DNA from: an uncultured Bacilli bacterium
GTDB lineage: Bacteria > Bacillota_I > Bacilli_A > RF39 > UBA660
Direction of reading: 5' to 3'
DNA length: 32,000 bases
Assembly: GCA_910584305.1 (NCBI GenBank)
Contig: CAJTZW010000007.1
Coordinates: forward strand, 34,804 to 66,803
The notes under the pieces were generated by a model that was not told the DNA's origin, made no database searches, and was given only the letters and a program-made list of their open reading frames with translations. Of this stretch, positions 2,921 to 13,936 are shown one piece after another. Both the position numbers and the translations under genes were made by a program. Positions within the stretch are counted from its first letter, which is position 1. Each line of letters opens with the position of its first letter.

Positions 2921-5086
2921 TTATGAAACTTCATATTTCCCACCAAAAGTAACCAAGAGCGAACTATCGGATGAAATCACAGAACCTTCTGGTATACTTT
3001 GATTTGTTACATATCCATTTCCCTCTAACGTATATGGAATATGTAATAGAGTACAAAGAGAAATCACATCACTTTTACTCCATCCAATAAGATTGGGCAT
3101 ATTATATATAGAAGAATTGGTAAGAAGAAGTACTTTATCCCCCGCAACAAGGGTTGTCCCTACACTCGGAAATTGATTGATAACACGACTTCCATCTCCA
3201 ATTATAATTGGATGTAATCCATATCCTCGCAACTCCTCTACAACAACTTCAATCGATTGGTTGGTATAAGATGAAACCACATACTCACTTACAGTAGACG
3301 CCTCTTCCCTTTCACTTAAATTTTCATACTTTGCAATACTCTTAATTACATCGGTTACAGCTGTATATACACCCGCACTGGTTCCCCAAAGAGGAGATTT
3401 CATAGCTGCATATATAATATACTCAGGATCTTCTGCAGGAAACATTCCTGCAAAAGAGAATATATAGTGATTTTCATTGGTTTCTATCACATAAGATCCA
3501 AGCTCTGCATTATAAATTTGTGAAGTTCCTGTTTTTCCAATTATATTGAGTCCTTCTACATTATAAGCACGCCCTGTCGTTGCACCTATATCATTACCAT
3601 GAATTGTATTATACATAAGTTCACGTATCTTATCTGTAGTAGATTTTTGTACAATAGAATCACTAACTTCAATTTGTCTTTCATAATAAATCTCATTGGT
3701 ATCCGGATTTACAATTTGCTTTACAATATGAGGTTTTACCATTTTACCATCATTAGCAACAATCGTTAGAGCCTGTAATTGTTGAATGGCAGTAGTTGTA
3801 ATTCCTTGGCCGAATCCAGCATTTGCTACTTCTACCTCATAATTAAAATTAACACGTCCTTTTTGCTCCCTAGAAAGTTCTATTCCCGTAATATCACCAA
3901 AGCCATATTTTTTAAAACAATCACGGAGTTCATCCTTTGATAAATAAGTACGAATTAAATTGACAATTCCAACATTACTAGAATATTCATATCCTTTATC
4001 GAAAGTAACTGCTCCCCAACCTATAGTATTCCAATCACGAATTGTCGCATCCGCCACAGAAACACTTCCAGATTGATATAATGCACTTCCATCATATTTC
4101 CCACTATCAATCGCACACATATATGTATATGTCTTCATAACAGATCCTGGTTCAAATGTCATTGTAACAAGTGGATTCTCGTAATTTACAATATTACGAA
4201 CATTAGGATCAAAAGATGGAGTTGAAGAAGTCGCTAAAATATCACCCGTTTTAGCATTCATTACGGTAAGTTGTAGCCACTCTGGAGAATAGGTAGTATT
4301 CGAAGCCTTAACCGCACTTTCTACAAACCTCTGCACTGTAGAATCAATCGTTAAATAAATATCATACCCATCAATCGCATCAATTGATACTTCTTTCGTC
4401 CCTGAAATTTTATAGCCATAGCGGTCTTGCTGATATTCCAAATAACCATCGGTTCCCTTTAATAAATCATTATACTTTAACTCAATTCCAAGTTCACCAG
4501 CAATTTGAATAGAAGAATTATTATTTTCATCTGTAACCTCTGTATCCTTAGCATATCCAATGACATAGGAAGCAAAATCACCATTAGGATAATATCGTTT
4601 TTGGCTCTCTATAAAATCAATTCCAGAAAGATTCAAGCTTTCAATTTCCTCTTTTTTTAACTCAGTAATTCCTCTTCCTCCTGGACCAAGTTCTACCTGA
4701 AATTTATCCATAGACATACGTTCAACTAAAGTAGAGACTTCCATTTCTAGTACAGGTGCCAAAGCCTCTGCTGTCATTTGTACATCCTTTACATAATCAT
4801 CTTTCCTACTTTCACGGCTAGCTTCTAAATAAGCAATCACTGTATAAGAACTGACATTCACTGCTAAAATATTTTGATTCGCATCATACACCGTTCCGCG
4901 GGTAGCAGAAAGTGTTTTCTTTACGGTACTTCTACTTGCCGCAAACTCATCCATATCCTTACCATACACCTTGCCTGATAATGACAAATAAGCAAATTGT
5001 AGATACAATAAAAAAATACAAAGTAAAAATACACCAAAAACAAATTTTGGAAAATTCCAAGTTTGTGTATTCCTCTTTGTATTCAT
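2921..5086 (-). CDS. class B penicillin-binding protein (FtsI/PBP2B/SpoVD family) with C-terminal PASTA repeats
   Basis: It has an N-terminal TM anchor, the transpeptidase motifs SVMK, SSN and KTGT, and two PASTA-like C-terminal repeats. It sits after ftsL in the dcw cluster. Confidence 0.9.
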   Translation of the reverse strand: MNTKRNTQTWNFPKFVFGVFLLCIFLLYLQFAYLSLSGKVYGKDMDEFAASRSTVKKTLSATRGTVYDANQNILAVNVSSYTVIAYLEASRESRKDDYVKDVQMTAEALAPVLEMEVSTLVERMSMDKFQVELGPGGRGITELKKEEIESLNLSGIDFIESQKRYYPNGDFASYVIGYAKDTEVTDENNNSSIQIAGELGIELKYNDLLKGTDGYLEYQQDRYGYKISGTKEVSIDAIDGYDIYLTIDSTVQRFVESAVKASNTTYSPEWLQLTVMNAKTGDILATSSTPSFDPNVRNIVNYENPLVTMTFEPGSVMKTYTYMCAIDSGKYDGSALYQSGSVSVADATIRDWNTIGWGAVTFDKGYEYSSNVGIVNLIRTYLSKDELRDCFKKYGFGDITGIELSREQKGRVNFNYEVEVANAGFGQGITTTAIQQLQALTIVANDGKMVKPHIVKQIVNPDTNEIYYERQIEVSDSIVQKSTTDKIRELMYNTIHGNDIGATTGRAYNVEGLNIIGKTGTSQIYNAELGSYVIETNENHYIFSFAGMFPAEDPEYIIYAAMKSPLWGTSAGVYTAVTDVIKSIAKYENLSEREEASTVSEYVVSSYTNQSIEVVVEELRGYGLHPIIIGDGSRVINQFPSVGTTLVAGDKVLLLTNSSIYNMPNLIGWSKSDVISLCTLLHIPYTLEGNGYVTNQSIPEGSVISSDSSLLVTFGGKYEVS

Positions 5087-5099
5087 CTATTTCACCTCT

Positions 5100-5396
5100 T
5101 TAGTCACTCACAATGACAATATTATCATTATTATAAGCAAGTCCCATATCAGAAACAATCCCTTTAATCTTATCAAAAGAAGTAAGTTCATTTACTTTCA
5201 TAACTAAACTTTCATTCTTTCTCTCCTGACTCTCGATATCATAACGTATTTTTTCCACACTCATACTCAAATGACTTACTCCAGCACCACAGAATATCTT
5301 TAATACCATCGTCATACCAAAACAAAACAAAGCACTCACATATAAAAGTCTTTCTCCCTTAGTAATCTTCATTTTTCTTTTCTTCGCTTTTTTCAT
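5100..5396 (-). CDS. ftsL: cell division protein FtsL-like
   Basis: This 98-aa bitopic protein has a basic N-terminus, one TM helix and a coiled-coil-like tail. It lies between rsmH and the PBP gene. Confidence 0.6.
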   Translation of the reverse strand: MKKAKKRKMKITKGERLLYVSALFCFGMTMVLKIFCGAGVSHLSMSVEKIRYDIESQERKNESLVMKVNELTSFDKIKGIVSDMGLAYNNDNIVIVSD

Positions 5397-5397
5397 A

Positions 5398-6321
5398 TTA
5401 TCCCTCTTTTATTCTCTCTATAACTCTAAGTTTTGCGCTACGTGCACGATGATTTTCTGTAATCTCTTGCGCAGTTGGATCTATCACACCAATTATTTTA
5501 AATTTAGGCATAAACTCCTCTGGAATGACTGGCATCTTCTGTAAATTTTTATCCACAGAACTAACCTCTTTAAAGATTTTCTTGCAGAGTTTATCCTCAA
5601 GTGAGTGAAATGTAATAACACAAATACGTCCCCCAACCGCTAATAAATCTAATGCTTGATATAAAGCAGATTCAAATACTTCTAACTCATGGTTTACTTC
5701 AATACGAATTGCCTGAAATACCTTTCTAGCAGGATGTTTCTCTAATTTATATTTCATAGGGACACTTTTCTTAATAACCTCCACTAACTCTAATGTTGTT
5801 GTAATTGGTTTTATTTGACGTTCCTTTACAATATTTTTTGCAATACTAGTTGCATACTTCTCTTCACCATATACAGTAAAAATATGAGCTAAATCTTCAA
5901 ATGAATACGAATTTACAACCTCATATGCAGAAAGCGATTCCTCCCTGTTCATTCTCATATCCAAACGTGCATCACTATGAAAACTAAATCCACGATAATC
6001 CTCATCCAGCTGTGGAGAAGATACACCCAAATCAAATAGAATACCATTTACTTTTTCAATGCCACGTTTTGTAAGCTCTTCTTTTATATGAGAAAAATTA
6101 GAATAAATCAGTTCATAGTTATCTGCAATATTAGAAAGTCTCTTTTGACTACTTTGAAGTGCCTCTGTATCTTGATCAAATGCATAAAGAAAACCGTTCG
6201 GTATACGGTATAAGATTTCACTGCTATGTCCCCCATATCCTAAAGTACAATCTACAACAATACTACCCAAAGACAAATTTAAATTTTCTAAACACTCTAG
6301 CAGTAAAACACTTTTATGCAT
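5398..6321 (-). CDS. rsmH: 16S rRNA (cytosine1402-N4)-methyltransferase RsmH (MraW)
   Basis: The sequence MHKSVLL.E....L....G..VDCTLGYGGHS...DLGVSS.QLD is the canonical RsmH pattern. The gene is immediately downstream of mraZ. Confidence 0.95.
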   Translation of the reverse strand: MHKSVLLLECLENLNLSLGSIVVDCTLGYGGHSSEILYRIPNGFLYAFDQDTEALQSSQKRLSNIADNYELIYSNFSHIKEELTKRGIEKVNGILFDLGVSSPQLDEDYRGFSFHSDARLDMRMNREESLSAYEVVNSYSFEDLAHIFTVYGEEKYATSIAKNIVKERQIKPITTTLELVEVIKKSVPMKYKLEKHPARKVFQAIRIEVNHELEVFESALYQALDLLAVGGRICVITFHSLEDKLCKKIFKEVSSVDKNLQKMPVIPEEFMPKFKIIGVIDPTAQEITENHRARSAKLRVIERIKEG

Positions 6322-6331
6322 AAAAACACCC

Positions 6332-6766
6332 CTATAAATTTAAATTACTAGAAAACAGATTGTCAGCAATTTCAGAGAAATTCTTTTCATTCTCATCCAT
6401 AAACTGATTCCAAATGCTCTCACTCCAGATTTCTAGATGATCATTTACACCGATAATAATACAATCTTTTTCTAGTGAAGCATAATGGATCAGTGGACTT
6501 GCAATATTGATTCTTCCCTGTTTATCAACATTCATCTCAGTGGCTCCAGATAAGAAGAAACGCATGAAATTACGAGCATCCCTTGTGTTCGGCAAAGACT
6601 TATATGTATCAATAATGCGTTGCCAATCAACACGTGGATATATAAATAAGCAATGATCAAGACCTCTAGTTACAACAAAGTCATATCCTAATTGTTCGCG
6701 AATTTTTGAAGGCAAAGTCAATCTTCCTTTTTCATCAATCGCATGATGATACTCTCCCATGAACAT
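6332..6766 (-). CDS. mraZ: transcriptional regulator MraZ
   Basis: MFMGEYHHAIDEKGRLTLPSKIR...DKQGRINI shows the duplicated DxxxR MraZ motifs. I prefer the ATG at 6766 (GGGTGA Shine-Dalgarno 4-5 nt upstream) over the ORF-track start at 6778. Confidence 0.93.
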   Translation of the reverse strand: MFMGEYHHAIDEKGRLTLPSKIREQLGYDFVVTRGLDHCLFIYPRVDWQRIIDTYKSLPNTRDARNFMRFFLSGATEMNVDKQGRINIASPLIHYASLEKDCIIIGVNDHLEIWSESIWNQFMDENEKNFSEIADNLFSSNLNL

Positions 6767-6773
6767 AAAATCA

Positions 6774-6809
6774 CCCACTTATCTCCACTTTCATCCACTG
6801 TATACCACT
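6774..6809 (-). promoter_or_regulatory. array of four MraZ-box-like repeats at exact 10-bp spacing
   Basis: The minus strand reads AGTGGT-N4-AGTGGA-N4-AGTGGA-N4-AGTGGG (plus-strand NCCACT at 6774, 6784, 6794 and 6804). The array lies between the putative -10 and the mraZ start. MraZ operators are known to be GTGG-type direct repeats with 10-nt periodicity. Confidence 0.55.
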
Positions 6810-6895: not shown

Positions 6896-8314
6896 CTACT
6901 TTCTTTTTCCAAAATCTTGGACTTCCTTATATACAAAGTTACATAATTTTGATAGTTGCTCTTTACCTATATAAATAACCCTACCTCCTGGAGGACTTAT
7001 TTTATGATTTCCGAAAACAATCCAAATCGCATTCAAATACTGCGTAGGCATAGAGGCATACCCATCTGTAAATATAATCTTATTATCTGCTTTAGTAAAA
7101 GAATTCACAGCCACAGTAAAGTCTGTTCCTCCACCACCCACAAGAGGTATATTATCTATATCACTATTATCCCTCACTTCATAAAAACCATAAAACACAG
7201 TATCAAAGCATCCAACTTTCATTTTTGAATTTTGTAAAATATTTTTACATTCTCTAAGAAAATTTCTAAGTAACACTTCACTGATAGACCCACTTGTATC
7301 AAGCAGTATCTCCGTTTCACTAGACTCTATTTCTTCTAAATGTGGTGTCACAACACCATATTCTATCGATGCATTTTGAAATGACCAATCTTCTAACCCC
7401 TTGACTGTTTTGGATAATAAGGTTGTCCAATCAACAAATGAATCTGCCACACCAATTTCATCTATATTTCTTACAGAAGAATTTGTAGAAATTCCAACAC
7501 CCACAGATTGTTTTGCTAAAGCATTTCTTAATTCCTCCAACTGTTTTTTTCTTTCTACCTTGTTTTGTTTAAAAACCTTTTTTTCTCCTAATTCCGCTAC
7601 CTTTTGTACTTGTTCTTTAATTTTCTTTTCTCGCTCATCCTGTAAAGATACTTGTCCATTTTCCTTAGAATCTTCTTTTCTCTGGTTTTTCCTAAAAACC
7701 TTATCTAAAAAACTACGATTAGAGCTTTGTTGTTTTGGCTCTCCTTTTTCTTTTAAGTTATTATCATCCGGCTGGTTCTTTTGCTTCTGCTTCTCAATAG
7801 CCTTGTCCCACATACTATGTGAATCATGCCCAACGCAATTATTTCCTTTTTCTGGTGTAGAATTTCTATTTTTAGACAGTGAATTTTCATCATTTTTGTT
7901 TTCCCGTTTTTCTAATAACCGTTGATATAGTTCCTCTGAATCATAATTAAGAGCATCAGAAATCTCAACAACGTTATCCACCAACGTCAATCCATCATTC
8001 TTTAAAAACGCATTAATCACAGCATCTGTTGCTTTATTCCATGTTTCTTTGTCTTTACCTTCACTTCGATAAATATGATTTAAAGCGACATGGCAGACTT
8101 CGTGTGCAAAGACAAACACCTGCTCACTTTCTGACAAATTATTTATAAAATCTGGATGATAAAAAATAGTTTCGGCATCTGTTCCTGCCGTCGGATTTCC
8201 ATAATCATCTACACAATCCATTGTCTCAACATAATTTAAATTTGCTGTTATACTCCCAAAGATAGGATATTGAACAAGTAATTTACTTTTTATTTTATTT
8301 ATATCAACACTCAT
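6896..8314 (-). CDS. HExxH metallopeptidase-like domain / K,E,Q-rich linker / VWA domain protein (DUF2201-like partner of MoxR ATPases)
   Basis: The N-terminal domain carries VFVFAHEVCHVALNH (HExxH). A ~130-aa low-complexity K/E/Q/N linker follows. The C-terminal domain has the MIDAS-like motif ILLDTSGSIS and a ...GGGGTDF... segment. Its start lies 1 nt after the upstream ORF's stop. Confidence 0.75.
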   Translation of the reverse strand: MSVDINKIKSKLLVQYPIFGSITANLNYVETMDCVDDYGNPTAGTDAETIFYHPDFINNLSESEQVFVFAHEVCHVALNHIYRSEGKDKETWNKATDAVINAFLKNDGLTLVDNVVEISDALNYDSEELYQRLLEKRENKNDENSLSKNRNSTPEKGNNCVGHDSHSMWDKAIEKQKQKNQPDDNNLKEKGEPKQQSSNRSFLDKVFRKNQRKEDSKENGQVSLQDEREKKIKEQVQKVAELGEKKVFKQNKVERKKQLEELRNALAKQSVGVGISTNSSVRNIDEIGVADSFVDWTTLLSKTVKGLEDWSFQNASIEYGVVTPHLEEIESSETEILLDTSGSISEVLLRNFLRECKNILQNSKMKVGCFDTVFYGFYEVRDNSDIDNIPLVGGGGTDFTVAVNSFTKADNKIIFTDGYASMPTQYLNAIWIVFGNHKISPPGGRVIYIGKEQLSKLCNFVYKEVQDFGKRK

Positions 8315-8315
8315 T

Positions 8316-8708
8316 TTATATATGTACCATCAATGAATATATATCTTCATCAATAGGATGTTCCTTTAAATTTGAACAAGTAACAAAAATCATACAATTT
8401 GGTGGCAACTCAAATGTACTAATTTTCTTATATTTTAAAATCTCCAGAAACTTTCTTTGTTCCTCTTTTGGAATTTGATTAATACAGTCAATCACTAACA
8501 AAGGCACAGCCTGATGTAATACCTCACTATACCATTGGGGCGACATATAATGAACATCCTCATAATGTCCTGACAACAAAGAAACATCACAATTAGCAGG
8601 CAAAACAACTCCCCCCTGAATTGCATTGGCAGAAATATCTTCTAATAGAATTGGAAAAACTCCCGCTTTTACATATTCATTCAAAAATTTTAATCTCTCA
8701 TTATTCAT
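8316..8708 (-). CDS. small AAA-like protein lacking a P-loop (degenerate MoxR-type core)
   Basis: PLLVIDCINQIPKEEQRKFLEILKYKKISTFELPPNCMIFVTCSN...IDEDIYSLMVHI parallels ILFLDEISNVKSNYILNLAFNLVLDRELDGKWQLPENARVVVAGN...PLFNRMAHVFI in the upstream ATPase. It has no GxxxxGK[ST] motif and reads DC instead of DE. An ATGA overlap joins it to the upstream ORF. Confidence 0.45.
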   Translation of the reverse strand: MNNERLKFLNEYVKAGVFPILLEDISANAIQGGVVLPANCDVSLLSGHYEDVHYMSPQWYSEVLHQAVPLLVIDCINQIPKEEQRKFLEILKYKKISTFELPPNCMIFVTCSNLKEHPIDEDIYSLMVHI

Positions 8709-10324
8709 CGTTTTTGCCCTCCCATCGATAGATGCTCTGCTCGTAACTCAGCAATTCGCTCCAGTCTTTTATCATCTCCATGAACCCAAAGACTATCGAA
8801 AGTTGCCACTATCTCAGGGCCTAACTTTGTTATAAAATTTCTCACAACTTCTAAATTTTCATCTGTAACAAAAGAAAGACCTACCGCTGTCGCATATTTC
8901 TCTGAAATATCCATATATTGTAACCCTTGATCACTATAATTATTACTTACTATATCCTCTATCGTTATTACTTGTTGCTCACAAAACTTAACAAAATCCT
9001 TTGTAATTTCCTCACCGACAAGTGCCCTTAGCATATTCGGATTTTTAGTAGTATATAAAACTTTAGAAGCCAGCTCCCATTTTCTTGGATCAGCATTTGG
9101 AGTTTCTCCATTATAAGGTGTTCTAAGCACCTCCTCACCCCTATATGCTACATAAGCATAAATAGCTGGGTGTATTTTTGATTCTAACTCTGTTCTCTTA
9201 TAATCAAGTCGCTCATACTCTTCCTTTGGTGTGGCTGCCCATTTAAGCCATCCATCTACTGTAGTAGTAATAAAAACATGGGCCATTCTATTAAATAATG
9301 GTTGTGGGATTTCTGTTGCAGAAATAGAATCACATTTTTCATTTCCAGCAACAACAACCCTCGCATTTTCTGGTAGTTGCCACTTCCCATCTAGTTCCCT
9401 ATCTAACACTAAGTTAAATGCTAAATTAAGTATATAATTCGATTTTACATTTGAAATTTCATCTAAAAACAATATATGAATTTTATCAGGTTCTTTCTCA
9501 CATTTTTCTTCTAATCGCTTTAACCATGTAGGCTTAATATCCATCATTTCACCCGTTTGTTGGTTATACACAGATTTTCCTGCAAAAGAATCTGGATTTG
9601 CTGTTATCAAATACACAATTTCTGGATTTGGATCAAGTTGCTTCACTCTCGCACTCTTTCCCTCACTCGATCTACCATGTAAAAATACAGTAACTCCACC
9701 TTCTACAGATCCTTTAATGATATCTTCTTCACTTACCTCGCTGAAATCAAAGCCATATGGATTTTGTTTCCTATACGACGTTGTAGTTTCCTTTGATTGC
9801 GTATTAACTACATTAGAAAACGTCAATTCATTATGTTGAAACAAATCTTTTGATAAGTAATCATTCATAAATTTTTTAATATCCGTTGTATTAAAATTTT
9901 TTGTCTTATAATCACTCTCACGGTTAAATTGTACACCTGCAAAAATTAGCTTTTCCATCAACATAATCTTATACTTTTCATCTATCAACCATTTGACTGG
10001 CTGTACTTCTATCCAAACAAAATCTCCATCTTGATACTGCTCACCATTTGAAAGTGTAAATTTTTCCCCATCATAATAAGAGTTAGCCTTTACTCTAACA
10101 TACTTTTTACCATCATATTCATACTCAATATGTTCTTGTGCTAAAAAAGCACTATCATATTCATCATTTTTCCGTGAATCTGTTGTATATATATTTCCTG
10201 TTTTATTTAAAAATCCAGCATGTAATGCAGTTTCCAAACGATTCTGTAATAATTTAGAAACCGCTGTCTGTGGATAATAGCCATATTCTACCTCTAATAT
10301 TTCATCTTTTCCTCGCCCACTCAC
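8705..10324 (-). CDS. MoxR-like (AAA_5-type) AAA+ ATPase with N-terminal GxYPQ...W(L/V)(I/L)D beta-rich domain; start codon doubtful
   Basis: Motifs are Walker A GRSSEGKS, Walker B HILFLDEIS, sensor-1-like VVVAGN and PLFNRMAHVFI (the MoxR L-x-RF motif). The listed GTG start at 10324 has GGAG directly abutting it with no spacer, and there is no ATG in the first ~120 codons. The frame is continuous with the upstream VR-containing ORF. Confidence 0.75.
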   Translation of the reverse strand: MSGRGKDEILEVEYGYYPQTAVSKLLQNRLETALHAGFLNKTGNIYTTDSRKNDEYDSAFLAQEHIEYEYDGKKYVRVKANSYYDGEKFTLSNGEQYQDGDFVWIEVQPVKWLIDEKYKIMLMEKLIFAGVQFNRESDYKTKNFNTTDIKKFMNDYLSKDLFQHNELTFSNVVNTQSKETTTSYRKQNPYGFDFSEVSEEDIIKGSVEGGVTVFLHGRSSEGKSARVKQLDPNPEIVYLITANPDSFAGKSVYNQQTGEMMDIKPTWLKRLEEKCEKEPDKIHILFLDEISNVKSNYILNLAFNLVLDRELDGKWQLPENARVVVAGNEKCDSISATEIPQPLFNRMAHVFITTTVDGWLKWAATPKEEYERLDYKRTELESKIHPAIYAYVAYRGEEVLRTPYNGETPNADPRKWELASKVLYTTKNPNMLRALVGEEITKDFVKFCEQQVITIEDIVSNNYSDQGLQYMDISEKYATAVGLSFVTDENLEVVRNFITKLGPEIVATFDSLWVHGDDKRLERIAELRAEHLSMGGQKR

Positions 10325-10373
10325 TCCGTTCGTGGAGATTGTAGATAAATTAGAGAACGGTAAAGCTGGGCGA
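10313..10373 (-). promoter_or_regulatory. nested inverted repeat at the 3' boundary of the VR (candidate DGR target-recognition hairpin/cruciform)
   Basis: On the plus strand, tcgccca (10313-10319) pairs with tgggcga (10367-10373) and ccgttc (10326-10331) pairs with gaacgg (10355-10360). The internal loop is a symmetric 6x6 and the apical loop is 23 nt. The partner arms are absent next to the TR. Confidence 0.35.
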
Positions 10374-10439
10374 CCACACCCAAATCGTTTAATGACTCTA
10401 GTCTAGATACTAGTTCCAATTCAGTAAACGACGCGCGCG
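10366..10439 (-). repeat. DGR variable repeat (VR)
   Basis: This 74 nt matches 11957-12030 at 64/74 positions. The 10 mismatches (10383, 10384, 10392, 10401, 10403, 10407, 10413, 10419, 10422, 10426) all correspond to T on the TR plus strand, which is A on the coding (minus) strand. Confidence 0.9.
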
Positions 10440-10720
10440 TCATTATCACCGTCATCAGTTTTTGTCCAATACCAGCCTGTACGGCTTTCTAATGAAGTAT
10501 CTCCATTATAGTGATATCCACTAGACACATAACCACCTAAAAGAATTGCAAAATCTGTGATTGCTGCACTTGTTCCCCTTTTTTGAATAACATCTAATGC
10601 TTGTGTTCCAAATATTTGTTCCTCTGTTAAAAACGTAAAATCATTCATACGTAAATCACCAACCTCATAATAACATAATTTTCTGAAATAGAAAATACAA
10701 TCTTCTACTTTTTTTGACAA
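10421..10720 (-). CDS. DGR target ORF fragment, C-type-lectin-like 'WWLRS...VRPAL' type domain truncated by a stop inside the VR
   Basis: The sequence ...FTFLTEEQIFG...TGWYWTKTDDGDNDARVVY* continues past the stops as IGTSI*TRVIKRFGCGRPAL. The listed start is TTG at 10720 and overlaps the RT stop; an alternative ATG at 10648 has a GGTGAT Shine-Dalgarno. The last 6 sense codons and the stop lie in the VR. Confidence 0.6.
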   Translation of the reverse strand: MSKKVEDCIFYFRKLCYYEVGDLRMNDFTFLTEEQIFGTQALDVIQKRGTSAAITDFAILLGGYVSSGYHYNGDTSLESRTGWYWTKTDDGDNDARVVY

Positions 10721-11739
10721 AAATTGGAAATAACTGCCAATTTTAGCCTTGAGCTTTCACTTGTATCCTTAATATGATTATAATATGCATTCTTCCTAGC
10801 ATATATATATTTTTCATCCACTAACCCCTTATTCTCTAATTTTGCTAAAGTTTTAAGATGTCTTTTTAATCTCACTCTAGAAGAATTTCGCAATTTTTGA
10901 ATTACCTTTCCTGTCGGTGTTAAATAGTGACAATATCCTAAAAAGTCAATCCCATTTTTTACCTTGCCTATTTGTGTTTTATTATTTAGGGATAAATCAA
11001 GCCCTGTTTTACAAAGATTTTTTATTTCTTCCAAACAATATTTTAAATATGCCTTATCACTATGTATTAAAATCATATCATCCATATAACGAATATAATA
11101 TTTAATTTGTAATTTTTCTTTGATGAAGTGATCCACTTTATTTAAGTATAAAAGAGCAAACCACTGACTTGATTGATTCCCTAGTGGCAATCCTATACTG
11201 TTTAAAGAGGATTCATTAGAAATCAATTTTTGTATCATCCACATCTCATCCTCTGAAAAAGAGATTTCCCTCAAAAGATTTTGTAATATTCGATGATTTA
11301 TACTAGGAAAATATTTTTTAATATCACACTTTAAAAAATAAAATTCATTATTTTTGCACAAAAAGTATTCCCTCCTTAAAAAACTTTCCAATCGATGAAT
11401 TGCAAAGGATGTTCCTTTTTCCTTTCTACAAGCCGCATTATCGTATATAAGTTTTCTCTCTATTCTAGACTTTAAACAAACATCACAAAAACACCTTATT
11501 AATACTCTATCCTTATAGGGTGGCGCTTCAATCAAGCGTTCTTTGGGTTCATATACAATAAACTTTCTATACCCACCTAACTCATATTTTTTAGTAACAA
11601 TTTCATTCATCATATTCACTATATTAGCACTTAAATTTGCTTCAAAACGTATAACCTCTCCTTTATGTTGTTTTGATTTTCTACACTCCTTATGTGCACT
11701 ATATAAATTTTCAAATGTAAATATATCTTCTAACTTCAT
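10705..11739 (-). CDS. DGR-type reverse transcriptase
   Basis: The catalytic motif is YIRYMDDMILIH (YMDD). The DGR-diagnostic motif-4 LGNQSSQ ([ILV]GxxxSQ) and the N-terminal YEPKERLIEAPPYKDRVL are also present. I prefer the ATG at 11739 (GGAGGT 5 nt upstream, MKLEDIFTFENLYSAHKECRK...) over the ORF-track start at 11790. Confidence 0.9.
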   Translation of the reverse strand: MKLEDIFTFENLYSAHKECRKSKQHKGEVIRFEANLSANIVNMMNEIVTKKYELGGYRKFIVYEPKERLIEAPPYKDRVLIRCFCDVCLKSRIERKLIYDNAACRKEKGTSFAIHRLESFLRREYFLCKNNEFYFLKCDIKKYFPSINHRILQNLLREISFSEDEMWMIQKLISNESSLNSIGLPLGNQSSQWFALLYLNKVDHFIKEKLQIKYYIRYMDDMILIHSDKAYLKYCLEEIKNLCKTGLDLSLNNKTQIGKVKNGIDFLGYCHYLTPTGKVIQKLRNSSRVRLKRHLKTLAKLENKGLVDEKYIYARKNAYYNHIKDTSESSRLKLAVISNFCQKK

Positions 11740-11956
11740 TTTACCTCCAAAAAAAGAACACCCCTTATAACGCACAAAGAATGCATACACATCCGTTGTT
11801 TGTGTAGGTGTTTTATATATTTGTCCACCGCACTGATTTTCTTTTAGCGGTTAGAAAAGAAGTAAATTCCTTCACTTTATAGCACGGATATACCCTACTT
11901 AGAATATATTTCTCTGGCCTGTTTTCTAGATTCATAAAATCTCTTCAAAAGTGAAT

Positions 11957-12030
11957 CTGGGCGACCACACCCATTTCGTTTATTGACTCTATTTTAGTTA
12001 CTATTTCCATTTTAGTTAACGACGCGCGCG
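11957..12030 (-). repeat. DGR template repeat (TR), non-coding
   Basis: This is the A-rich copy of the 74-nt repeat, with 27 A on the minus strand. It lies 217 nt upstream of the RT start and 72 nt downstream of avd, and no ORF covers it. In the target frame it reads VV-AAC-TAA-AAT-GGA-AAT-AGT-AAC-TAA-AAT-AGA-GTC-AAT-AAA-CGA-AAT-GGG-TGT-GGT-CGC-CCA. Confidence 0.9.
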
Positions 12031-12708: not shown

Positions 12709-13248
12709 CTATACAACAAATAAATCTCCTATAAAATTAATTCCATCGCTTACAAAATTTATAAACAAATAGAATGTATCCCGAATTCTGTTTTTCTTAT
12801 AATCTTTCTTTGTAATCTTAAAAACGACACCATCTCTACATGATATAACATCACACTTTTGATGGTATCTTGCATAACGTTTCTTTATGATATCTATATC
12901 AATATCTTCATTTTTAACAAAAAGAACAACACTATACTCTGCCAAATATAAGCTATCTGAAATAAATCGTCTATGATACCCATGCAAATCATCATAAGAA
13001 GCAATAATATATTGAATATTTTGTTTACGAAATTTCTTTCGAATCTTACGATAAGAAATCTTTTTAGATGGACCCCTTTTTTTACCTTCCCCACCTGTAT
13101 AATTTAAATCTGATAATACTGTAAATGTTGTAATATTCTGATTTTTATCAATTTCAGATAACAATTTCTCATCTAAACTGCCAAATCCCAATACACTTCC
13201 ATGCATTGTACGAGAATTATCTAATAAAACCTTTTCTATTTTATTCAT
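12709..13248 (-). CDS. hypothetical protein with a C-terminal hydrophobic segment
   Basis: This ORF is wedged between tcdA (8-nt overlap using the ATG at 13248 with a GGTGAT Shine-Dalgarno) and avd (its stop abuts the avd frame). It has a basic patch KKRGPSKKISYRKIRKKFRK. I recognise no family. Confidence 0.45.
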   Translation of the reverse strand: MNKIEKVLLDNSRTMHGSVLGFGSLDEKLLSEIDKNQNITTFTVLSDLNYTGGEGKKRGPSKKISYRKIRKKFRKQNIQYIIASYDDLHGYHRRFISDSLYLAEYSVVLFVKNEDIDIDIIKKRYARYHQKCDVISCRDGVVFKITKKDYKKNRIRDTFYLFINFVSDGINFIGDLFVV

Positions 13249-13936
13249 AAACATCACCTATCATATGGTGTACAAGATAACTTGTACAAAGAAGTCCCGC
13301 TACACTTGGAACAAAGGAACAAGAAGCAATCGTAATACCCTCATGTGGTATAGGTCTCTCCATACTACAAACAACAGGAACTTTACCTGTAATATGCTCA
13401 TCACGTACCATTTTTCGAATAATTTTCGCAATTGGATCATAAGAAGTTTTTCGAATATCCATAACTTGAAGTTTAAGAGGATCTAGCTTATTTCCCGTTC
13501 CCATACAAGAAACAAAAGGAATATTTCTAGAACTACATACACGAATAATCTCCTTTTTTACTTCTATAGTATCACAAGCATCAACGACATAATCCACTTC
13601 AGATGTGATTCGCGTAGCAATTTTCTCTGGTAAAATAAATTCACAAATCCCTATAACATTACACTCTGGATTAATATCCAAAATTCTCTCTTTCATAACA
13701 TCCACTTTATATCTTCCAACCGTTGAATGAAGTGCAATAATTTGGCGATTGATATTGGTAATATCAACTGTATCACCATCTATTATAATAAGCTTACGAA
13801 TGCCAAGACGGGCTAGCGACTCTACAACATATCCACCAACTCCACCAATTCCTATAACCAAAACGGTTTTATTTTGAATGATTTCTACTTTATCTTGTAA
13901 CAAAAGTTCTAATCTTGTCCATTCCATATGTAACAC
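13241..13936 (-). CDS. tcdA: tRNA threonylcarbamoyladenosine dehydratase (ThiF/HesA-family, TcdA-like)
   Basis: VLVIGIGGVGGYVVESLARLGIRKLIIIDGDTVDITNINRQI is an E1-like Rossmann motif, and the ~230-aa size is typical of TcdA/CsdL. Confidence 0.8.
   Translation of the reverse strand: MLHMEWTRLELLLQDKVEIIQNKTVLVIGIGGVGGYVVESLARLGIRKLIIIDGDTVDITNINRQIIALHSTVGRYKVDVMKERILDINPECNVIGICEFILPEKIATRITSEVDYVVDACDTIEVKKEIIRVCSSRNIPFVSCMGTGNKLDPLKLQVMDIRKTSYDPIAKIIRKMVRDEHITGKVPVVCSMERPIPHEGITIASCSFVPSVAGLLCTSYLVHHMIGDVYE

Follow-up and report, generated by a model that had tools for sequence, protein, structure and literature searches.

Most cellular targets of diversity-generating retroelements (DGRs) are thought to face outward, and the few intracellular cases, in which the variable domain is fused to STAND or vWA proteins, come from multicellular cyanobacteria and proteobacteria and form the basis of the "antigen sensor" idea. 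DGR-diversified conflict systems with MoxR and vWA components have already been published (Kaur et al. 2020, PMC7159879; Dore et al. 2024, PMC10907252), fusions of a C-type lectin domain to an AAA ATPase (CLec-AAA) are reported as the commonest DGR target architecture in candidate phyla radiation (CPR) bacteria (PMC10907252), and a pair made up of a MoxR ATPase and a metallopeptidase-vWA protein has been described for jumbo phages (PMC7824862). Here we analyzed a stretch of 32,000 nucleotides (the window) from an uncultured Bacilli bacterium (RF39; UBA660; assembly GCA_910584305.1, contig CAJTZW010000007.1, positions 34,804-66,803), which carries on its minus strand a cassette of ~6 kb comprising a DGR, in the order Avd gene, template repeat (TR) and reverse transcriptase (RT), followed by three translationally coupled genes for a target ATPase and two partners, p130 and p472. 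We regard it as moderately probable that this cassette, taken as a whole, serves as a hypervariable device for recognition inside the cell, the likeliest targets, by analogy with the published DGR-MoxR-vWA systems, being invading elements. In light of the three precedents, the novelty that an initial annotation of the window had assigned to the coupling of a DGR with a MoxR/vWA module was overstated; what is new is best described as the DUF6273-type head at the N-terminus of the ATPase, the phage-type peptidase-vWA partner, the pseudo-AAA third gene and the gut Bacilli hosts. Our literature search, with its incomplete coverage, found no paper describing this cassette family.

The target gene was listed in the window as two open reading frames (ORFs) of 99 residues (10421-10720) and 539 residues (8705-10324), which together form one reading frame, broken only by a TGA and a TAG that both lie inside the variable repeat (VR; Table 1). 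Because homologues begin with MNDFTFL or MNNFTFL, we place the real start of the target at the ATG at 10648. A search with the joined frame recovered >2,800 uninterrupted homologues, mostly of 630-686 residues, with 98-100% query coverage and 55-62% identity, and the N-terminal, VR-bearing domain was present in 95 of the 98 target copies in the 77 related loci described below, showing that the fusion of variable domain and ATPase is the normal architecture and that the VR ORF is not, in relatives, a stand-alone secreted protein. In a crude hydropathy scan, made with no dedicated signal-peptide predictor, no 19-residue segment of the target, p130 or p472 exceeded a Kyte-Doolittle value of 1.2, in keeping with the cytoplasmic appearance noted in the initial annotation; we infer that an intact allele would yield a 647-residue protein that has no predicted transmembrane helix and can be taken as cytoplasmic. 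These results bear on the possibility that the DGR serves a classical secreted or surface protein, such as an adhesin or receptor-binding protein, merely located beside an unrelated ATPase operon. That possibility would agree with most described cellular DGR targets being membrane-anchored or secreted (bioRxiv 10.1101/2020.04.01.020958) and with the use of DUF6273 VR domains by the receptor-binding tentaclins of phages (PMC10743442), but we consider it extremely improbable, as it is already contradicted by: 1) the joining of VR domain and ATPase in one ORF throughout these homologues; 2) the absence of a transmembrane helix in the hydropathy scan; 3) the conserved translational coupling of the target to its partner genes.

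The DGR itself, with its VR in the N-terminal part of the ATPase frame, was found where the initial annotation had placed it, on the minus strand. The RT matches RVT_1 at 1.9e-15 and contains in its translation the YMDD motif and the LGNQSSQ motif (as LPLGNQSSQWF) of DGR-type RTs; its ATG is preceded by a GGAGG ribosome-binding site, and public assemblies likewise call it as 344 residues, while the mechanically derived ORF reaches 11790. The accessory protein matches the PHROG family "Avd protein of DGR" at 1.8e-15, together with NCBIfam DivGenRetAVD at 1.1e-7 and Pfam bAvd at 1.6e-4, both under the curated cut-offs, and in 19 related loci the RT has an Avd homologue upstream. The bAvd-like region of this protein spans residues 81-192 and follows an N-terminal extension of ~80 residues that has no family match; the Avd homologues in related loci are of similar length. 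VR aligns without gaps to TR, and within this core of 77 nucleotides all 11 differences (11 of 11) fall on TR adenines, with none on another base. Thus, the DGR copies TR with adenine-specific errors into VR in the 5' part of the target. Downstream of VR we found no convincing hairpin or cruciform, the short imperfect inverted repeats that were seen being located inside VR.

Comparison of assemblies from the same species showed TR and its flanks to be identical among samples (for TR, in contigs L079-L081), whereas VR occurred as six distinct alleles differing pairwise at 11-19 positions, with one non-adenine mismatch in total across the five full-length alleles; outside VR, the target, p130 and p472 proteins were 100% identical. 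With one TR and six VR alleles, the DGR is therefore active in this species. One conspecific allele (P0123) is uninterrupted, called as 671 residues, and has Ser and Tyr at the positions of the two stops in the window, while both stops are present in five of the six distinct alleles, one of which also contains a 1-nucleotide insertion. The latter (L085, GCA_948655615.1) has a VR allele of 74 rather than 73 nucleotides, with a frameshift besides both stops, and may represent a retrohoming indel or an assembly error. The split product of 539 residues was found on at least 24 contigs vs. 3 for the intact product of 671 residues, counts that come from a non-independent sample, partly ascertained via the 539-residue product itself.

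Because of the two stops in VR, the window allele is unable to make the fused protein. Both are templated: TR, read in the target frame, gives ARVVN*NGNSN*NRVNKRNGCGRP, in which the asterisks are two in-frame TAA codons, and these stand beside six AAY codons. The inability of AAY codons to give rise to stops is stressed in the DGR literature (bioRxiv 10.1101/2024.11.15.621889), and the TR of the window departs from this nonsense-avoiding pattern, which is a typical rather than a strict DGR feature. In-frame TR stops (TAA, TGA or TAG) were also present in 11 of 19 related DGR loci of other species (L002, L003, L008, L009, L014, L015, L021, L035, L039, L053 and L058; 12 of 20 with the window), mostly at the same two positions, and 6 of the 15 VR codons templated by TR stops are stops themselves, including the two in the window. 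At the second position, the TR of some relatives has TGG, which suggests that this stop evolved in a series from TGG to TGA to TAA. Two other explanations of the stops were rejected. An alternative genetic code does not fit, as TAA, TAG and TGA all end long ORFs (15, 6 and 4, respectively, on the minus strand) and the long genes of the window are intact under table 11; similarly, the +1 frame is open across VR, but it is the stop-containing frame that agrees with the AAY pattern of TR and with every homologous protein. We found no description of TR-encoded stops in the DGR literature that we searched. These template-encoded stops are a real oddity and run counter to the common view of DGR templates as free of nonsense codons.

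To estimate how often homing would give nonsense alleles, we used the substitution spectrum at TR adenines outside the TAA codons, where A is kept in 55% of cases and replaced with G in 21%, C in 15% and T in 10%. Computed from this spectrum, 53% of the codons templated by TAA would be stops, and with two such codons in TR ~78% of homing events should therefore yield nonsense alleles, a prediction with which the excess of split over intact products agrees. Most retrohoming events thus also switch the sensor off, and the window carries an OFF allele. The same numbers could be taken to mean that the cassette is idling or decaying in this species, i.e. that the DGR fires into a target that is effectively an unselected pseudogene and nothing functional is made; with the target under no selection, the stops would then be damage and not regulation. 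We think this unlikely. It accords with the two stops in the window, their presence in nearly all the conspecific alleles, the predominance of split products, an observed stop frequency in agreement with the 0.53 per codon expected in the absence of selection, and the absence of a convincing ribosome-binding site, as read from the sequence, before the GTG of the 539-residue ORF. Speaking against it, the ORFs of 539, 130 and 472 residues are intact outside VR, with their catalytic motifs kept and with no difference between ON and OFF alleles, the species also has an intact allele, and TR stops recur at the same two positions in related loci with targets 50-60% identical, implying that the feature has persisted through speciation. 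At the other extreme, it is conceivable, though we are doubtful, that the TR stops are a selected design by which each homing event redraws the specificity of the sensor and, ~3:1, switches it off. Under such a design, armed cells, with specificities drawn at random, would be in the minority, and the majority would be spared the cost or autoimmunity. If true, the DGR would act as both a specificity generator and a phase-variation switch for an immune-like MoxR/peptidase-vWA machine that is widespread in gut Bacilli; stops of this kind, if adaptive, would amount to a new regulatory use of DGRs.

With respect to the protein that an intact allele would specify, the target comprises a DUF6273-like variable domain (residues 1-~105), a beta-rich domain (~110-270), a disordered linker, and a C-terminal part made up of a MoxR-like AAA+ core (~296-470), a helical lid and a C-terminal extension. 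An AlphaFold2 model of P0005, a homologue 62% identical to the window target, reached a confidence (predicted local distance difference test, pLDDT) of 84. In this model, an N-terminal alpha/beta domain (1-~100) and a beta-rich domain (~109-268) are separated by a disordered linker (271-291) from an AAA+ core, which has a long helical lid. Among 40 aligned sequences, the residues G325, G330, K331 and S332 of Walker A (GxxxxGKS), E397 of Walker B, N436 of sensor 1, as well as R454 and R522, are invariant, covering the MoxR-class set of Walker A and B, sensor 1, arginine finger and sensor 2. In Foldseek, the model matched the MoxR-like protein 2r44 (CHU_0153), NorQ (9qh4) and RavA (6q7l) with E-values of 2e-7 to 1e-6, MCM subunits scored equal to or slightly better than these MoxR members, and phage ATPases labelled AAA_5, "MoxR-like" or "dynein-related" matched down to 4.5e-16. 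Given the MCM scores, the safe statement is that the ATPase belongs to the AAA+ group comprising MCM and MoxR. Of the homologues, only some, such as P0016 (24.0 bits, cut-off 22) and P0011 (29.1 bits), pass the AAA_5 threshold. A gene for a vWA/MIDAS partner, as expected of the MoxR class, adjoins the ATPase in 72 of 81 related copies. The MoxR-type assignment made in the initial annotation thus rests on homologues and on structure, the window's own sequence having no Pfam or NCBIfam match, and we treat the ATPase as MoxR-like in this sense. A sequence search against PDB chains gave no match for the full-length family, its N-terminal half or p130. Longer variants of the target also occur: P0002-P0004 have 909-914 residues, with P0002 (P0003 and P0004 being of similar length) consisting of two consecutive sensor units, each a VR domain plus a beta domain, and then one ATPase, while P0011 (1018 residues) and P0087 (932 residues) contain a duplicated ATPase module.

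The two partner proteins follow without delay, as the initial annotation had read from the sequence: the stop of the 539-residue ORF overlaps the p130 start by 4 nucleotides (ATGA, in ACGATGAAT), and the gap from p130 to p472 is 1 nucleotide (TAAAATG). The p130 family aligns to the core of the target ATPase with the P-loop (Walker A) segment deleted (hhalign A5 vs. A3, 95.9% probability, E 5.8e-9), showing that p130, the P-loop-less AAA-like protein of the initial annotation, is a paralogue of the alpha/beta core. It has no match in Pfam, NCBIfam, PHROG or PADLOC, and its gene adjoins the target in 61 of 81 related copies. For p472, the predicted combination of an HExxH domain, a charged linker and a vWA domain was borne out by matches to Pfam DUF2201_N (HExxH; 2.5e-29) and the DUF2201 VWA-like domain (8e-13); the zincin-like HExxH domain is N-terminal and is followed by a variable charged linker (residues ~140-300) and the vWA/MIDAS domain, and across 69 homologues HExxH is conserved, as are DxSxS, GGT and FTDG, the motifs of the MIDAS.

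The nature of the variable domain is less evenly supported. While the window's own sequence does not match DUF6273, the homologue P0002 does so above the cut-off (27.3 bits vs. 23.5, at profile positions 77-168 of 172), weak DUF6273 matches occurred in 4 of 16 relatives (best 0.0018), and other relatives match DUF6273 or Fib_succ_major weakly; we surmise from these profile hits that the VR domain is a divergent DUF6273. In phage tentaclins, DUF6273 has been assigned a C-lectin-like fold with VR at its C-terminal end (PMC10743442). A C-type lectin fold of the VR domain is in this manner supported indirectly, by weak profile matches and the literature. As to structure, residues 1-100 of the full-length P0005 model are predicted with confidence (pLDDT of 70-96 by block), but the top 50 Foldseek matches of that model were all to the ATPase. 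For the lectin-like segment proposed in the initial annotation, support thus comes from one above-threshold relative and the literature, and no structural match was obtained.

The module is widely conserved. When one genome per species was scanned, 258 relatives were confirmed, from which 77 loci were fetched; these come from gut metagenome-assembled genomes, mostly labelled Bacilli and in some cases Tenericutes, Clostridia or Coprobacillus. Both partner genes directly follow the target in 58 of 81 copies, and nearly all of the remaining copies belong to tandem arrays, in which 2-5 target paralogues precede one partner set; such arrays were seen in L063, L039, L019, L030 and others, each with just one p130/DUF2201 set. 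In L001, two target copies ~3.9 kb apart have VRs that match one and the same TR. A DGR RT is adjacent in 26 of the 77 copies with enough upstream sequence, showing that the association with a DGR recurs beyond this genome and is recurrent but facultative. Variation centres on VR even where no RT is adjacent: between the near-identical homologues P0066 and P0092, 20 of 650 residues differ and 10 of these are in VR; a second patch of differences at residues 45-52 (S/Y, S/L, D/Y, A/T), ~25 codons upstream of VR, may mean that the TR of that lineage is longer or that it has a second one. The housekeeping surroundings of the cassette change from species to species, and relatives of the fused protein numbered 1 in 2.9 million viral contigs (IMG/VR) vs. 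the 258 species genomes, which points to a cellular rather than a viral cassette. The sole relative in the viral collection is L089 (IMGVR_UViG_3300006217_003178), a putatively viral contig.

How these parts would work together can be put forward as follows. The DUF6273-type (C-lectin-like) binding domain, with 14 diversifiable codons, would serve as the variable head, carried by the beta-rich domain and the flexible linker in front of a MoxR-like AAA+ module, catalytically competent and presumably ring-forming. Through its vWA/MIDAS domain, p472 may dock on this ring, as NorD does on NorQ (PMC9976466, PMC13036017), with its HExxH zincin domain providing an effector or processing activity, and p130 may regulate or cap assembly of the ring. 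Binding of a ligand to the variable head would then lead to ATP-driven remodelling and, in turn, activation of the peptidase-vWA partner.

Several results weigh against the recognition device proposed here: 1) nonsense alleles make up most of those sampled in the species, roughly as many as would arise in the absence of selection, which speaks against an intact sensor being strongly selected for at present; 2) the window's own ATPase has no NCBIfam match and no Pfam match even at E-values up to 10; 3) the C-lectin fold was not reproduced, an AlphaFold2 model of the N-terminal part by itself having a pLDDT of 63 and no PDB match at E < 0.3; 4) the target, p130 and p472 had no match in PADLOC-DB 2.0, where the RT alone matched generic RT models, the conflict-system role suggested in the initial annotation being an inference; 5) the neighbours in the window are housekeeping genes (the dcw cluster and a ThiF-family gene) and not a defence island; 6) the nearest characterized relatives of the ATPase and peptidase-vWA pair are phage genes, for which a role in virion assembly has been proposed (PMC7824862).

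The last point raises the question of whether the cassette is instead a domesticated phage-type chaperone or processing module that folds, assembles or proteolytically matures a cellular or mobile-element complex, with the DGR tuning its client. The similarity is extensive: the ATPase matches phrog_1297 at 1e-37 and p472 matches phrog_1314 over its full length at 6.8e-57, homologues occur in 229 and 334 phage records, respectively, and the pair lies close together in N4-like phages, e.g. MIF8 and Ab2712. For the phage pair, Iyer et al. propose a virion-assembly or processing role (PMC7824862), and characterized MoxR-vWA pairs such as NorQD are insertion or assembly chaperones (PMC13036017). 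However, a fixed client needs no hypervariable binding head, no phage structural genes are found nearby, the fused family is nearly absent from viral contigs, and neither for the sensor domains nor for p130 is there a counterpart in phages, all of which make a chaperone of this kind improbable in our view.

The coordinates of the cassette and its neighbours are collected in Table 1. With a G+C content of ~31% and coding almost wholly on one strand, the window places the cassette in a bacterial chromosome; rather than phage or prophage genes, mraZ/rsmH and a ThiF-family gene flank it. The genes at 2921-6778 on the minus strand form a canonical cell-division cluster of mraZ, rsmH, an ftsL-like gene and the gene of a PBP2B with PASTA domains. 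Among the 77 related loci, mraZ and rsmH are both nearby in only L019 and L030, and rsmH alone in L073. The 182-residue ORF upstream of the Avd gene is annotated as a gene in public assemblies of the same species; since it has no match in Pfam, NCBIfam, PHROG or PADLOC and is not kept beside the cassette in related loci, it is probably best left out of the system. An Rfam scan of the window gave no match.

Table 1. Positions in the window of the cassette, its repeats and stops, and the adjoining genes.
Feature	Position	Strand	Remark
ThiF-family gene	13241-13936	-	housekeeping neighbour
182-residue ORF	12709-13257	-	between ThiF-family gene (17-nt overlap) and Avd gene
Avd-like gene, 201 aa	12103-12708	-	DGR accessory
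TR	11954-12030	-	upstream of RT; 27 adenines
TR in-frame TAA codons	12012-12014 and 11994-11996	-	two sites
DGR reverse transcriptase, 344 aa from ATG	10705-11739	-	RVT_1
Target gene, 647 codons, interrupted in window allele	8705-10648	-	single frame
VR	10363-10439	-	in 5' part of target gene; GC-rich 3' end GGGTGTGGTCGCCCAG common to TR
In-frame TGA in VR	10421-10423	-	templated by TR TAA
In-frame TAG in VR	10403-10405	-	templated by TR TAA
p130, 130 aa	8316-8708	-	overlaps target stop
p472, 472 aa	6896-8314	-	1 nt after p130
mraZ, rsmH, ftsL, PBP2B (dcw cluster)	below 6778	-	directly downstream of cassette

Widespread and coherent, the architecture also lends itself to experiment. The cassette extends the intracellular DGR theme to unicellular gut Bacilli, many of them labelled Tenericutes, with at least 258 species-level relatives, and does so by a different solution, in which the variable head is placed directly on a MoxR-like ATPase whose peptidase-vWA partner comes from a family hitherto seen chiefly in phages. 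As a compact and soluble system of three proteins, it could allow recognition, ATPase remodelling and peptidase activation to be reconstituted, with natural ON and OFF alleles present in public assemblies.

When set beside systems that share one of its parts, the cassette resembles tentaclins of gut Firmicutes phages (PMC10743442, PMC11792537) in having a putative DUF6273-type domain as DGR target, and the phage RTs nearest to that of the window are DGR RTs, with that of the tentaclin phage nd12 the closest, at 44% identity. In contrast to the tentaclins, which continue into Ig-like domains and act in receptor binding on the virion, the domain in the window continues into an AAA+ ATPase that is cellular and apparently cytoplasmic. 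Direct fusion of a variable domain to an AAA-type ATPase is likewise found in the CLec-AAA targets of CPR bacteria (Paul et al. 2017, via PMC10907252) and in the UVR4/Midasin-like targets (Wu et al. 2018, PMC5758913). The CPR targets, compared here by description and not by sequence, belong to another RT clade and other phyla, and no conserved peptidase-vWA or pseudo-AAA partners are reported for them in the account given there.

The pair of MoxR ATPase and metallopeptidase-vWA protein in phages (phrog_1297 plus phrog_1314, PMC7824862) comprises the same two families as the cassette, with the same order in the vWA protein, HExxH being N-terminal and vWA C-terminal. Its co-location in phages rests on MIF8, Ab2712 and PMC7824862; a PA5oct "homing endonuclease" near the ATPase was considered as a DUF2201 partner and rejected, as Pfam identified it as a genuine endonuclease-like protein. 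Unlike the window target, the phage ATPases have ~350-400 residues, without the DUF6273 and beta-rich N-terminal domains and with no DGR attached, and their context is viral whereas that of the window cassette is chromosomal; p130 has no similarity to the small genes beside the phage ATPases. The DGR-associated VMAP (vWA-MoxR-associated protein) ternary conflict systems of cyanobacteria and gammaproteobacteria (PMC7159879, PMC10907252) share with the cassette a DGR-diversified binding domain, of lectin type there and putatively so in the window, an operon that also encodes a vWA protein and a MoxR-like ATPase, predicted intracellular targets and the presence of peptidase effectors. In these systems, the variable FGS/CLec domain is C-terminal on the vWA protein, MoxR has a gene of its own and the third component is a VMAP protein; in the window cassette, by contrast, the variable domain is of the DUF6273 type and is fused N-terminally to the ATPase, a zincin HExxH domain (DUF2201_N) forms part of the vWA protein, and the third gene encodes a P-loop-less AAA paralogue, with Pfam detecting no VMAP domain in the target, p130 or p472. 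The hosts differ as well, VMAP systems being found in multicellular bacteria and the cassette described here in small-genome gut Bacilli.

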